Translations under genes and position numbers: made by a program
Origin: a phage
Sequence record: PZ386969.1
Strand: one strand, 5' to 3'
Length of the DNA stretch: 64,000 bases
In this document: positions 25,169 to 40,366 of the stretch, piece after piece
Numbering within the stretch: position 1 is the first letter of the stretch
Layout: the number at the start of each line of letters is the position of its first letter
Notes under the pieces: generated by a model
Seen by the model: only the letters and a program-made list of their open reading frames with translations
The model's database searches: none
Told to the model about the DNA's origin: nothing

Positions 25169-25176
25169 TATAAATA
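25169..25176 (+). promoter_or_regulatory. T4-type late promoter box TATAAATA
   Basis: Exact TATAAATA about 35 nt upstream of the GTG start at 25211. Confidence 0.5.
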
Positions 25177-30004: not shown

Positions 30005-30811
30005 ATGAATTTACCATCATTGCCCAGAACAGAAAAGACATATAAAAGCGACTTTTGGCCTACTGTGATCAAATATCGCGCCTTTACTGCGGGGCAACAA
30101 ACTTTATTACTTCAGGTGTCAGATCCGCAAACGCCGATTGAAGAACGCGCGGCCATGATGGAGAGTCTCTTTAGCGAGTGTGTAAATGCAGGCGCACCTT
30201 TCAGTAAACTGCCAATCGGCGTTGTTGAGGAAGTGTTCATCCGCATGCGCATGATCTCCATCGGTGAATTGATGAAGATTCGTTATAAGTGCAATAATCA
30301 GATTGAAGAAACGATCGATCTGGGAGATGGTCAAGAAAAGCACCAGATGGTTCCCTGTGAGCAGGAACTGACTCTACCTATCCCGTTGAACAACGTCAAA
30401 TGCATTGCTCAGGACGGCTTCCGGGAGACGTTTGACCTGCCAGGTGGATATCACCTCAAGATGCGCCAACCTTCCTTCTCGGACGCTACGGCACTGTCTG
30501 ATGCTGCAAGCGTTGAGATGATGCTGGCCACCTTTATCGACTGTCTGTACGATGATGACGGTCAGGTGTGGAAGGTTGAGAATCCTGAAGAAATCGGAAT
30601 CACTCCGGAAGAGGCTACTGAGCGCCGCCGTGTGAAAGAAGCGTTTGTTGAGTGGGTGAAGGATAACATCGAATCAGATGTTATTGACAGCATTACGAAG
30701 AACTTCTTCCATAAAATACCGCGCATCCACTACAAGAGTTCGATCAAGTGTCCGAAATGTGGTAAGGAGCACAAAATCGAATTCAATAGTATTAATGAAA
30801 TTTTCATTTAA
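30005..30811 (+). CDS. hypothetical protein with C-terminal zinc ribbon (possible baseplate assembly protein)
   Basis: ORF 29891..30811; start moved to ATG (MNLPSLP) with GGAGATA RBS; C-terminal CPKCGKEH; upstream of gp5/gp25-like genes. Confidence 0.4.
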   Translation: MNLPSLPRTEKTYKSDFWPTVIKYRAFTAGQQTLLLQVSDPQTPIEERAAMMESLFSECVNAGAPFSKLPIGVVEEVFIRMRMISIGELMKIRYKCNNQIEETIDLGDGQEKHQMVPCEQELTLPIPLNNVKCIAQDGFRETFDLPGGYHLKMRQPSFSDATALSDAASVEMMLATFIDCLYDDDGQVWKVENPEEIGITPEEATERRRVKEAFVEWVKDNIESDVIDSITKNFFHKIPRIHYKSSIKCPKCGKEHKIEFNSINEIFI

Positions 30812-30960
30812 TGTTTGAAACTGATTTATTATCCTACTTCGTGATGTGTGATGAATTGAAGTTACACGGCTATAGCATATTTGAAATCAACGAGTCGATG
30901 CCATGGCATCTTGACTTGTTAACCGAAGCCCTCAAGGTCAGGTTGTCTAAGAAACAGTAA

Positions 30961-30986
30961 TCCCGCTTCGGCGGGATTTTTATTGG
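30961..30986 (+). terminator. intrinsic terminator
   Basis: TCCCGC-TTCG-GCGGGA followed by TTTTTATT. Confidence 0.65.
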
Positions 30987-31028
30987 CTTAACTGTAAAAT
31001 CGGTTAACACGCGCTCTTTTTACCTGAA

Positions 31029-31041
31029 ATTGCTATAATGG
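31029..31041 (+). promoter_or_regulatory. possible extended -10 promoter (TGcTATAAT)
   Basis: ATTGCTATAATGG with TG two nt upstream of TATAAT, about 280 nt upstream of the gp5-like ATG. Confidence 0.3.
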
Positions 31042-31323
31042 GCTTGTTCCCGAGTCATTTGTTGGTGTTTGTCTGTTTTGAATCAGATTGTCAGTAAAAT
31101 ACCATTTTTCAAGGAGTGTTCTGGGGTGTACAGTTATTGCCTCGCCCTTATGCCTCCATGGCATTGGAATGGTGCTGCCCGCATAGGGCGGTTTGATGAG
31201 CGAAGCGAATAGGATCGAATAAAACAAATAAAATGAACGGAAGCAGAGCTTCCTATAGTATATAAGGCAAAATCAGCTGCGCATAAATACCTTCAAATCC
31301 TTGTTTGACAACCGGAACTCAAT

Positions 31324-32934
31324 ATGTTAGACAATATGAGATGGTTTTACGGCACCGTTGAAGATGTCAACGATCCAGACCAAAACGGGCGCGTCGCCGT
31401 CCGCATCTATGGCGTACACACCGACGATCCCGTCCTCCTGCCTACAGACAAACTCCCGTGGGCGAAGGTACTGATGCCTGCTTCTAACGCCTCCTCTGCT
31501 GGTTTAGGTTGGTCTCCAACGGGTATCATTCCTGGTACTGAGGTTATGGGGTTCGCCCTTGACGAAGCATACCAGAATTTACGCATCACCTGGACTTGGA
31601 CTGGTTCAAGTCCTACTGATGGCGCCGACACAAACCCACTGGCTCTCGGGCAGGTCGTTCAATCTGTAGAACGTCAGGCGTACAACGCTGTCACTGACGT
31701 TCCTGTGAAACAAGAAGACGAACCACAACCAGATCCACAACCACCTGTTGGTGGGTATGATCCAGAGAAGTGGATGACAATCGCTCGTGGCGAATTAGGT
31801 ATCAAGGAGTATGCCGGAAAGTTCAACAACAACCCGCGCATTATAGAATATCACAAGACAACCTCCCTTGGTGCTTCTGAAGATGAAGTGTCGTGGTGTG
31901 CGGCGTTCGTGGGTTGGGTTATGATACAGGCTGGATACACGTCTACACGCTCCGCTCTTGCCCGATCTTACCTTACATGGGGTACTGCACTGTCAGCACC
32001 ACAATATGGCGCTATCGTAGTCTTCCGGCGTGGTAACAACCCCACATTTGGACACGTAGCGTTTGTGCAGAAGTTCGATGCAAACTATGTCTGGTGTATT
32101 GGTGGCAACCAATCCGATTCAGTGAAGGTCAGTCGTTTCAGACGTTCTTCGGTCTTGGGATATCGTTGGCCTGGTCCTGCTAACACAGCCACAGCCGCGC
32201 CTGCGCAGCAGAATGGTAAATGGTCAGAACCTATCCCAGATCGTACCCCAAAGGAACAACCGACTCCGGCTCCTACTGGGCGAGTACAGGATATTGACAA
32301 CACTGGAGAAACCATGGTTCCGGCTGCGGGTGGATCTAAATACCCGTACAATAACGTCATGGTGTCCCGAGCTGGGCATATTATGGAAGTGGACGACACC
32401 CCTGGTGGTGAACGTCTTCACTGGATGCATAAGTCTGGGTCTTACAAGCAAATGTTGCCGGATGGTGATGTGGTCAACAAGTCCGTCAAAGACCACTATG
32501 ACCTGACGATGTTCAACAAGCGTTATTATGTCGGCGGGGACCACAACCTGACGGTCAAAGGAACTGAAGTTCAGCGCAAGACAGGTGAGGTCTATCATTT
32601 GCATTCCAACAATTACTCCAACGTGGTTGCGGGCACAGCGCTGATGAAATTCAGTGACCTAGCGGAAATGCAAGCGCAGAATATTCTGCGCATTATCTGC
32701 GAGACTCTGGAGGTCGGTGGGACATTGAAGGTTCCTAAGATTCTAACGACTGAGATAATCGCTGACAAACTGACTGTCGCTCAGACGATCAATGGTAACA
32801 TCATATATGCCGAAGGTGCTGGTCGCGCTTCTTCTCTGTCAGGTGCAACCCCTGCATCCCCTACGGGTCCGGGTGAGATTGACATCAAGGCAGAATTAAA
32901 AGACAATGGTGGTAATTTCGGCACCAAAGAGTAA
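31324..32934 (+). CDS. baseplate central spike protein (gp5-like) with CHAP/NlpC-P60-type peptidase domain
   Basis: N-terminal gp5-type OB motif FYGTVEDVNDPDQNGRVAVRIYGVHTDD; central Cys/His peptidase motifs (EVSWCAAFVGWV; GHVAFV); 536 aa. Confidence 0.7.
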   Translation: MLDNMRWFYGTVEDVNDPDQNGRVAVRIYGVHTDDPVLLPTDKLPWAKVLMPASNASSAGLGWSPTGIIPGTEVMGFALDEAYQNLRITWTWTGSSPTDGADTNPLALGQVVQSVERQAYNAVTDVPVKQEDEPQPDPQPPVGGYDPEKWMTIARGELGIKEYAGKFNNNPRIIEYHKTTSLGASEDEVSWCAAFVGWVMIQAGYTSTRSALARSYLTWGTALSAPQYGAIVVFRRGNNPTFGHVAFVQKFDANYVWCIGGNQSDSVKVSRFRRSSVLGYRWPGPANTATAAPAQQNGKWSEPIPDRTPKEQPTPAPTGRVQDIDNTGETMVPAAGGSKYPYNNVMVSRAGHIMEVDDTPGGERLHWMHKSGSYKQMLPDGDVVNKSVKDHYDLTMFNKRYYVGGDHNLTVKGTEVQRKTGEVYHLHSNNYSNVVAGTALMKFSDLAEMQAQNILRIICETLEVGGTLKVPKILTTEIIADKLTVAQTINGNIIYAEGAGRASSLSGATPASPTGPGEIDIKAELKDNGGNFGTKE

Positions 32935-33007: not shown

Positions 33008-33388
33008 ATGAAAGAGTATAAAGATGTCGATCTGAAGTTCGGCATGCATCCGGTGACCAAAGATGTCACCATGAAATCAGGTGTGTATGCTGTCTTACAA
33101 TCCGTGCGGAATATCGTCATGTCTTCAGTCGGGGACTGGCCCACTTATCCTGGGATCGGCGCGGGACTTTATGGGCTGCTGGGTGAAAACACGACACCGA
33201 CTATCCAGGTAGATGTGAAGAACAAAGTAGAGGACGCCATCGCCCTGTATGAACCCAGAGCAGAGGTAGAAGAAGTCACGGTGAGTCTGTCAGAGGATTA
33301 CCACTCTCTGGGCGTGACCATCACATTCTATGTGGTCAACAATCCAGATCCAATAACAGACACCGTGTGGTTGAAAAGGACGAATTAG
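33008..33388 (+). CDS. baseplate wedge protein (gp25/GpW-like)
   Basis: C-terminal LYEPRAEVEEVTV...VTITFYVVNNPDPITDTVWL aligns with T4 gp25 (NYEPRIDKLAVNV...IRFSVIDNPDDIEQIKL); 126 aa. Confidence 0.85.
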   Translation: MKEYKDVDLKFGMHPVTKDVTMKSGVYAVLQSVRNIVMSSVGDWPTYPGIGAGLYGLLGENTTPTIQVDVKNKVEDAIALYEPRAEVEEVTVSLSEDYHSLGVTITFYVVNNPDPITDTVWLKRTN

Positions 33389-39571: not shown

Positions 39572-40366
39572 TTAACTGAAACTCTTGTATGCTGCTGCGA
39601 GCTTCTTGTCGTACTGGTTCTTGGCATACGCCGGACCATTATAGCGCCGTGCAAATTCAGACCAGTTCTTGTCCTTCAGAGCCTGCCAGAGCTTGGCGTC
39701 AGCCTTGATGAACTTCACGAATGCCATCAAATGAGCACGTTCTCCTGTCAGGAAGTCGTTGAACATCTCCTTGGCGTTGGCATATCCACAGACCTGGCAG
39801 TTGAATCCCATGATCTGGAAGAGACCGTAAGAGGCACTCTCGTACGCACAATCCTCGTCGATGTTGATCGCTGCATGAAGTCGATCCAACTCCGCGTCAC
39901 CACCCGTGTACCCGCCTGCGGAAGGACTGACCAACGTCGGGTACATATGTCCCATGGCATTCGCCCGAGCCTGTCCGAACTTCGCCGTCAGCTTCTTATA
40001 CATGATGTGGCGCTCAAATAATGTCTTGATCTTACCTGACTTGGTGAAGCCCGTACCGCGTGACTCAACCTGATTCACCGCCTTGGCAGAGGCGAGGTCA
40101 ACACCCAGATCGTTAGCAGCATCAATCAGGTCTGATTCAGTTAGATGATCCTGATGGGCGTCTCCGGCGTTGCGAATAGCATAGGAGGTCTTTGGACCTA
40201 CGATACCATCAATGACAAGCCCCGCACCCGCCTGAACAGTCTTGACAGCGTTCTCTGTTGCCTTGCCAAAGATACCATCAGCGACGAGGGTGAAGCCGAT
40301 TTTGTTGAGGCTATTCTGAAGTGCCTTCACTTCAGTGCCACGGTTGCCAAGTTTTAGAATGGCCAT
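39572..40366 (-). CDS. endolysin (N-terminal peptidoglycan-binding domain, C-terminal muramidase-like domain)
   Basis: Start moved to ATG (MAILKLGN) with GGAGG RBS; PG-binding repeat (GFTLVADGIFGKATENAV...DGIVGPKT); C-terminal ESASYGLFQIMGFN motif. Confidence 0.7.
   Translation of the reverse strand: MAILKLGNRGTEVKALQNSLNKIGFTLVADGIFGKATENAVKTVQAGAGLVIDGIVGPKTSYAIRNAGDAHQDHLTESDLIDAANDLGVDLASAKAVNQVESRGTGFTKSGKIKTLFERHIMYKKLTAKFGQARANAMGHMYPTLVSPSAGGYTGGDAELDRLHAAINIDEDCAYESASYGLFQIMGFNCQVCGYANAKEMFNDFLTGERAHLMAFVKFIKADAKLWQALKDKNWSEFARRYNGPAYAKNQYDKKLAAAYKSFS

Follow-up and report, generated by a model that had tools for sequence, protein, structure and literature searches.

The structures of T4 gp5 (PDB 1K28, 5IV5) are the template for the picture of a trimeric central spike, and the OB domain of this protein is the part that docks on the gp27 hub. 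Here we describe a gp5 homologue encoded in a 64,000-nucleotide (nt) stretch of phage DNA (sequence record PZ386969.1; in the following "the window"), which carries a predicted cysteine peptidase at the position of the T4 lysozyme. The closest described counterpart is the gp5 homologue of phage CBA120, a protein of 537 amino acids (aa) that was presented by Kutter et al. (2011, Virol J 8:430, PMC3184105) under "Baseplate Lysozyme": the usual lysozyme is missing, a putative CHAP domain extends over aa 150-282, and the flanks at aa 3-109 and 334-437 resemble T4 gp5. The boundaries that we recovered for the spike of the window are those published for CBA120, and the lysozyme-to-peptidase swap as such is already known, having been described bioinformatically for Ackermannviridae since 2011. 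Our literature search retrieved no biochemical or structural follow-up of this description. According to a 2017 review (PMC5380687), the wall enzymes carried in virions of Gram-negative-infecting phages are in their great majority glycosidases, with P5 of phi6 as the sole demonstrated endopeptidase among such virion lysins. The Ackermannviridae spike is a widespread predicted case of a tailed Gram-negative phage entering by a peptidase, not a lysozyme, in a family whose members are employed against Salmonella, E. coli O157, Klebsiella and Dickeya in biocontrol and in therapy. Beyond the 2011 description, the remaining value of the locus lies in the enzymology of the spike and in an unannotated conserved RNA-like element next door.

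We assign the gene product, with a probability of about 85%, to the central spike of a Vi1-like myovirus, i.e., to a T4 gp5 homologue in which a papain-like cysteine peptidase replaces the GH24 lysozyme. This assignment is based on the domain architecture, the fold, the conservation of catalytic residues and the baseplate gene context; the virion location of orthologues was taken from the literature and from database records, and trimerisation, enzymatic activity, the bond cut and the stage of action are our inferences. The Vi1-like gp5 orthologues of CBA120, Vi01, LIMEstone1, AV101 and RPN242 are the same protein with the same three-part architecture, and the protein of the window shows no substantive difference from them (identity of 99.8% to RPN242, about 94% to Dickeya phages and 84% to Kuttervirus Vi01). 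By its flanks, the spike is a gp5 homologue, but it is not a "tail lysozyme". An earlier inspection of the letters without database searches (hereafter the sequence-only reading) had noticed a gp5-type OB-fold at the N-terminus, which is borne out by the Pfam family Gp5_OB on aa 39-96 (E 1.9e-12, 48.1 bits, cut-off 25) and by BLASTP versus Tequatrovirus gp5, with 42% identity over spike aa 3-94. The second homologous segment is the onset of the C-terminal needle, which exhibits 36% identity over spike aa 339-435 to aa 386-480 of T4-type gp5 in BLASTP and domain E-values of 3e-13 to 7e-14 versus 1k28 and 9f4a in phmmer, with spike aa 337-435 aligned to T4 gp5 385-477 and to 9f4a 385-464. The solved T4-type gp5 chains 1k28, 1pdl, 1wth and 9f4a match the spike with E-values of 1e-30 to 1e-34; these matches are confined to aa 1-93 and 337-432, and the centre is never aligned.

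A comparison with T4 gp5 (PDB 1K28, 1WTH, 5IV5) thus starts from a homologous OB domain (42%) and a homologous beta-helix onset (36%), a similar length (536 aa in the spike, 575 aa in T4), the location of the enzyme between OB domain and needle, and a context of baseplate genes. The differences begin with the enzyme, a GH24 lysozyme in T4 and a cysteine peptidase in the spike. The linkers are unrelated as well, and the spike has no recognisable counterpart of the S351/A352 maturation site. Linker 1 has a mean pairwise identity of 65% among 24 orthologues (alignment A2) and no similarity to T4 gp5 in BLASTP. Linker 2 matches in position the T4 gp5 linker that bears S351/A352, and it contains the motif NGKWSEPIPDRTP (nt 32212-32250, + strand), which is strongly conserved within an otherwise variable region. 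This motif is a faint echo of the T4 gp5 sequence PPIPND, which follows the S351/A352 cleavage site. The last ~100 aa of the spike are unlike the VxGxxxxx helix of T4: up to about aa 500 they alternate hydrophobic residues in a strand-like manner, a Ser/Pro/Thr-rich stretch comes next, and an invariant DNGGNF (nt 32902-32919, + strand; alignment A2) is located near the C-terminus. Presumably, aa 436-536 represent the remainder of the needle plus the tip. Serratia- and Erwinia-type orthologues (P0014-P0020, P0022 and P0023) are extended C-terminally by 70-80 aa that are not present in the protein of the window (alignment A2 columns ~546-628); the extension comprises a spacer rich in Ser/Thr/Ala and, at its end, a small conserved domain reading ..VIILRQxGSKPQMMLSNGxTWE.., possibly a tip domain. 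T4 also differs in that genes for gp5.1 and gp5.4 (PAAR) do not follow the spike gene of the window, where a gp25-like gene comes next; the small open reading frames (ORFs) adjoining the spike gene have no Pfam matches, and gp27 and PAAR homologues were sought among the immediate neighbours only.

The central part of the spike was claimed by the sequence-only reading to carry the Cys/His peptidase motifs SWCAAFVGWV and GHVAFV, and both are located there, at aa 190-199 (nt 31891-31920) and aa 243-248 (nt 32050-32067), respectively. Its further proposal of a peptidase in place of a T4-lysozyme-like domain agrees with the matches to Pfam CHAP on aa 187-262 (E 6e-11, 43.1 bits, cut-off 26) and to NCBIfam TIGR02594 on aa 150-282 (E 1.1e-37, 129.3 bits, cut-off 70.55; model positions 2-132 of 132), whose scores lie far beyond chance, while no alignment with the lysozyme region of T4 gp5 was obtained. 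The domain search that it had suggested returned the CHAP and TIGR02594 families, and the suggested structure prediction, computed for aa 140-300 with a 69-sequence alignment, yielded a model with a papain-like alpha+beta fold (mean predicted local distance difference test [pLDDT] 86.8, predicted template modelling score 0.84). A lysozyme or glycosidase fold had been named as the result that would speak against the proposal; Foldseek searches of the PDB with our model rank NlpC/P60 enzymes first (Acd24020, Acd33800 and MepS), and those of viral predicted structures retrieve CHAP, NlpC/P60 or TIGR02594 lysins and "tail associated lysozyme" proteins. Judged by this model, NlpC/P60 (C40) endopeptidases are closer structural neighbours of the module than classical CHAP (C51) domains are. 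In many database records the gene bears the label "tail lysozyme", which could be taken in favour of a lysozyme or glycosidase that has diverged past sequence recognition, yet the label is inherited from T4 gp5, the lysozyme fold is not seen in the papain-like model and this explanation, refuted at the level of the predicted fold, is vanishingly improbable. The interpretation of the spike enzyme as a wall peptidase that would cut peptides instead of glycan is supported by sequence families and model alike.

The predicted catalytic triad consists of Cys192, His244 and Asn262. In the model, the register of the hairpin 243-251/255-261 would place Asn262 opposite His244 on the adjacent antiparallel strand. 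These three residues together with Gln263, Glu162, Trp191 and Arg214 are invariant in all 69 homologues, and the same residues are invariant in the 24 Ackermannviridae orthologues, whose identity ranges down to 59%. Within these orthologues, conservation along the spike peaks in the peptidase domain, with a mean pairwise identity of 82.6% and 61 invariant columns out of 133, compared with 56-72% in all other segments. This conservation speaks for an active enzyme that is maintained by purifying selection, and it bears on the alternative that the central domain is catalytically dead, or a structural or wall-binding module for spike assembly, and that penetration is mechanical. The loss of the T4 gp5 lysozyme is tolerated under many laboratory conditions, and the gp5-type proteins P0028-P0031, P0033 and P0037 consist of OB domain and helix only, both of which count for a dispensable enzyme. 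However, Cys192, His244 and Asn262 are retained throughout a set of 69 sequences that includes free-standing lysin-type proteins, and the strongest conservation of the spike resides in the very domain that would have lost its function. We rejected the dead-domain explanation on these grounds and regard it as very improbable.

Several observations weigh against our assignment or limit its reach. The third triad residue was assigned from model topology. A comparison with E. coli MepS by hhalign places Cys192 on Cys94 and His244 on His145, which we take to be the catalytic residues of MepS in precursor numbering, and Asn262 at an offset of two residues from His157, in an alignment that is weak throughout (E 0.0018, probability 14.6%). 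This comparison took the place of a search of PDB sequences with the profile of alignment A1, which was discarded because the GH108/PG_binding_3 domains of some members dominated it and no peptidase alignment resulted. The segment aa 436-536 has no recognisable similarity to the T4 beta-helix in Pfam and in BLASTP versus T4-type gp5. The full-length AlphaFold (AF2) monomer, computed with the 24-sequence alignment, reached a pLDDT of 48 with values below 50 in a disordered C-terminal half, and we dropped it for questions of needle and trimer. The structural neighbours of the central domain are a mixture of DL-endopeptidases, the DD-endopeptidase/LD-carboxypeptidase MepS and CHAP amidases, and fold alone cannot reveal the specificity for a bond. 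The literature search gave no biochemical assay of the domain or of close TIGR02594 relatives and nothing relevant on a cryo-electron microscopy structure of an Ackermannviridae baseplate, and the PDB sequences that we searched contained no solved Ackermannviridae spike.

With the central domain as a cysteine peptidase, the local breach of the wall would be made in the peptide stems and not in the glycan strands. The spike would trimerise in analogy to T4 gp5, its OB domains would seat it on the baseplate hub, and sheath contraction would drive the C-terminal needle across the outer membrane. Once this barrier is crossed, three peptidase domains around the needle base could reach the peptidoglycan and cut stem peptides, thereby making a local opening through which the tail tube can pass, and a muramidase endolysin distinct from the spike would cleave the glycan strands when the infection ends. 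Our preferred bond is that between gamma-D-glutamate and meso-diaminopimelic acid (gamma-D-Glu-mDAP), because the best-matching folds are mostly DL-endopeptidases with this specificity, and we give it an even chance. The same spike and fold could act on another bond, either as N-acetylmuramoyl-L-alanine amidase or as DD-endopeptidase/LD-carboxypeptidase on the mDAP-D-Ala cross-link; amidases occur among CHAP domains, and MepS, Tae2 and Tae3 act on this cross-link. We consider this alternative possible and somewhat less probable than the DL-endopeptidase.

The peptidase can be compared with known related enzymes. The NlpC/P60 (MEROPS C40) enzymes Acd24020 of C. difficile, LytE/CwlO of B. subtilis, SagA of E. 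faecium and MepS of E. coli are 17-23% identical to the domain; they differ from it in family (TIGR02594/CHAP in the window, not Pfam NLPC_P60), in the third residue, which is Asn with a CHAP-like spacing in the window, and in their secreted or lipid-anchored state, whereas the domain of the window is embedded in a virion spike. Contractile systems with Gram-positive targets have enzyme-bearing hubs or spikes, represented by the diffocin hub-hydrolase CD1368 (8v3w_H), the phi812 hub (9euf_E, 9eum) and the tail-tip lysin gp10 of Andhra (8ej5). Their carriers are hub or tail tip and not a gp5-type spike of OB domain and needle, and they attack thick Gram-positive walls, whereas the phage of the window belongs to the phages of Enterobacteriaceae. 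Type VI secretion system (T6SS) effectors, namely Tse1/Tae1 and Tae2-4, have their superfamily in common with the spike peptidase, and Stenotrophomonas effectors beside VgrG4 are reported as members of its family TIGR02594. They reach the Gram-negative periplasm by a homologous contractile spike (VgrG corresponds to gp27 plus gp5). However, T6SS effectors are separate cargo with immunity proteins that serves the killing of rivals, whereas the peptidase of the window is fused in cis and presumably serves local wall opening.

The stage of the infection at which the peptidase acts has an alternative of its own: its chief role might lie outside entry, in late baseplate or periplasmic steps, in lysis from without or in superinfection exclusion. 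The same module indeed constitutes endolysin-type proteins in ICP1 (ORF207) and in Pseudomonas and Proteus siphophages. In the window, however, the peptidase is fused within a structural spike that lacks a signal peptide and a holin context. Moreover, the orthologues are virion proteins, as documented by proteomics for Vi1 (cited in PMC3184105) and by the annotation "confirmed structural protein" in the LIMEstone1 record, and the phage harbors a muramidase endolysin candidate of its own, which makes a role chiefly outside entry improbable. This probable endolysin (39572-40366, - strand, 264 aa) combines PG_binding_1 with an N-acetylmuramidase domain (PF11860, E 2.7e-58). Entry via the spike peptidase and exit via this glycosidase would employ two different chemistries. 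T4 differs, since its two lysozymes are related to each other. In the CBA120 paper of 2011, no lysis enzyme was identified (PMC3184105).

The TIGR02594 module was found in 526 phage records, about 283 of which are Ackermannviridae spikes; among the records from other phages are proteins of the endolysin type and further "hub" proteins. Fusions of Gp5_OB and TIGR02594 without beta-helix are present in gp241 of Rhizobium phage RL2RES (288 aa, L004:2471-3337) and in the metagenomic proteins P0024 and P0025 (size range of the three 288-333 aa), and in the metagenomic P0026 (492 aa) the peptidase follows OB domain and needle onset. Further Gp5_OB proteins from the same search contain a GH46 enzyme or are enzyme-free. 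Neighbour-joining of 116 modules, a simple method applied to a query-biased sample, groups the modules of Ackermannviridae in one clade that is supported by 99 of 100 bootstraps, and other OB fusions were placed inside this clade in none of the 100. The nearest relatives of the clade are free-standing proteins with 50-58% identity, many of them with the architecture PG_binding_1 plus TIGR02594. The separate placement of the modules from other OB fusions suggests repeated independent capture and, if true, such captures at differing positions would make the spike enzyme a swappable cassette. By the present assignment, "tail lysozyme" labels are functionally wrong in hundreds of records, and genuine endolysins have come to bear the label, too. 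An example is ORF207 of Vibrio phage ICP1 (NC_015157.1 113578-114294; L005:2252-2968), which is annotated as "baseplate hub subunit and tail lysozyme" and actually comprises PG_binding_1 and CHAP in 238 aa, without Gp5_OB and among nrd and phoH genes. Its domain make-up is that of an endolysin-type protein, and the label seems to have propagated through similarity to the peptidase domain of Vi01 gp5. The same "tail lysozyme" label is carried by 42-kb Pseudomonas and Stenotrophomonas siphophages.

The genomic setting of the spike is in accordance with its assignment to the baseplate (Table 1). According to the list of open reading frames, the interval of the gene holds exactly one long ORF, and phrog_430 ("baseplate hub subunit and tail lysozyme"; PHROGs) covers spike aa 1-500 with an E-value of 1.8e-154. 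On the DNA level, the gene is 98.1-98.9% identical to those in ten database entries for phages of Escherichia, Salmonella and Enterobacter, including vB_CECAV_050, PC3, A221, AV101 and RPN242, and about 90% identical to those of Ag3-like phages; 24 kb around the gene have an identity of 97% to these Ackermannviridae genomes. The matching phages are placed in the subfamily Aglimvirinae of the Ackermannviridae. The spike is encoded amid baseplate genes, with a gp26-like gene on one side and a gp25-like gene on the other, and the + strand late-gene island in the order gp26-like, 49-aa ORF, spike and gp25-like is ringed by - strand genes for replication and nucleotide metabolism. The 64-kb window contains no tRNA genes.

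Table 1. Coordinates of the spike gene, its predicted domains and catalytic codons, and neighbouring features in the window.
Feature	Position (nt)	Strand	Remarks
Baseplate central spike / tail-associated peptidoglycan peptidase (predicted), complete gene	31324..32934	+	single long ORF, 536 aa, ATG start
N-terminal gp5-type OB-fold domain, aa 1-96	31324..31611	+	Pfam Gp5_OB; 42% identity to T4-type gp5 aa 6-102
Linker 1, aa 97-149	31612..31770	+	conserved DTNPLALGQ...VPVK, then Pro/Glu-rich stretch
TIGR02594 / CHAP-NlpC/P60 cysteine-peptidase domain (predicted), aa 150-282	31771..32169	+	occupies T4 gp5 lysozyme position
Cys192 codon, predicted catalytic nucleophile, in SWCAAF	31897..31899	+	invariant; helix N-terminus in model
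His244 codon, predicted catalytic base, in GHVAFV	32053..32055	+	invariant; beta-strand start in model
Asn262 codon, likely third triad member, in GGNQSD	32107..32109	+	invariant; last Pfam CHAP match position
Linker 2, aa 283-336, Pro/Thr/Ala-rich	32170..32331	+	alignment A2
Onset of gp5 C-terminal needle, aa 337-435	32332..32628	+	homologous to T4 gp5C
Diverged C-terminal part, aa 436-536	32629..32931	+	alignment A2, octad layout
gp26-like baseplate hub gene	30005..30811	+	Pfam T4_baseplate PF12322 E 1.5e-46; "T4-like gp26" in AV101
gp25-like baseplate wedge gene	33008..33388	+	Pfam GPW_gp25 E 3.1e-08, phrog_261; "T4-like gp25" in AV101
Intrinsic terminator AATCCCGC-TTCG-GCGGGATT + T run	30959..30978	+	ends gp26-like transcription unit
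TGCTATAAT, extended -10-type sigma-70 promoter-like box	31031-31039	+	~75 nt upstream of structured block
CATAAATA, T4-late-promoter-like box	31282..31289	+	42 nt upstream of spike ATG
TATAAATA, late-promoter-like box	25169-25176	+	exactly 42 nt upstream of gp54-like start, 25211

The gap upstream of the spike gene (30961-31323, 360 nt, of which about 345 nt lie between the end of the terminator and the ATG) contains no annotated gene in most records and is conserved across genera (72-74% in Kuttervirus, about 67% in Taipeivirus); our alignments of this gap comprise five and eight phages. The terminator at its beginning exhibits compensatory changes across genera and is annotated as such in the LIMEstone1 and May records. 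At the other end, the late-promoter-like box CATAAATA occurs in each of the eight aligned phages, 30-45 nt upstream of the ATG of the spike gene, and the corresponding position of the LIMEstone1 record bears the annotation "putative late promoter". We rejected the consensus (T/C)ATAAATA as a window-wide late-promoter motif: its four occurrences on both strands of the 64 kb are about the number estimated for chance, and it precedes two of the four late genes checked and is absent before the gp26-like and gp25-like genes. The case for the box before the spike rests on its cross-phage conservation and not on counts. The late promoter of the Vi1-like phages was left unidentified in the CBA120 paper of 2011 (PMC3184105).

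Between these signals, a near-invariant block of ~75 nt is not coding, because it carries 1-nt indels, and a hairpin (31239-31253, + strand) covaries through three fully paired states. RNAalifold predicted a multi-stem element of ~95 nt (31116-31210), in which the fraction of paired cells is 96%, versus 33-50% with slid partners, double-sided changes affect eight pairs versus 0-2 in controls, and the covariation score of 0.271 (shuffles 0.175 +/- 0.02) was reached by none of 500 shuffles, all in tests on seven sequences from three lineages with a structure that comes from this very alignment. The + strand is indicated as the location of the element by an invariant U-G and by several further G-U pairs; the element is single-copy in the window. 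Rfam gave only sub-threshold, terminator-driven matches on the gap, and the single-sequence fold z-score was unremarkable at -1.83. The element is not in Rfam, and the records consulted contain no RNA annotation for it. Judged from the alignment, it may represent a small RNA or a regulatory leader. The -10-like box upstream is kept as TGyTATAAy in seven of the eight aligned phages and may drive the element as a separate early transcript. More tentatively, and at slightly less than even odds, the spike gene may be part of a larger conserved unit with an upstream promoter and an RNA element shared by at least three Ackermannviridae genera and, as a separate matter, the spike enzyme may be a swappable cassette. 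In Klebsiella phage May, a 64-aa "hypothetical protein" (CPT_May_153, L008:282-476) is annotated over the conserved upstream element; a conserved coding role is doubtful because of the 1-nt indels between genera within the block.

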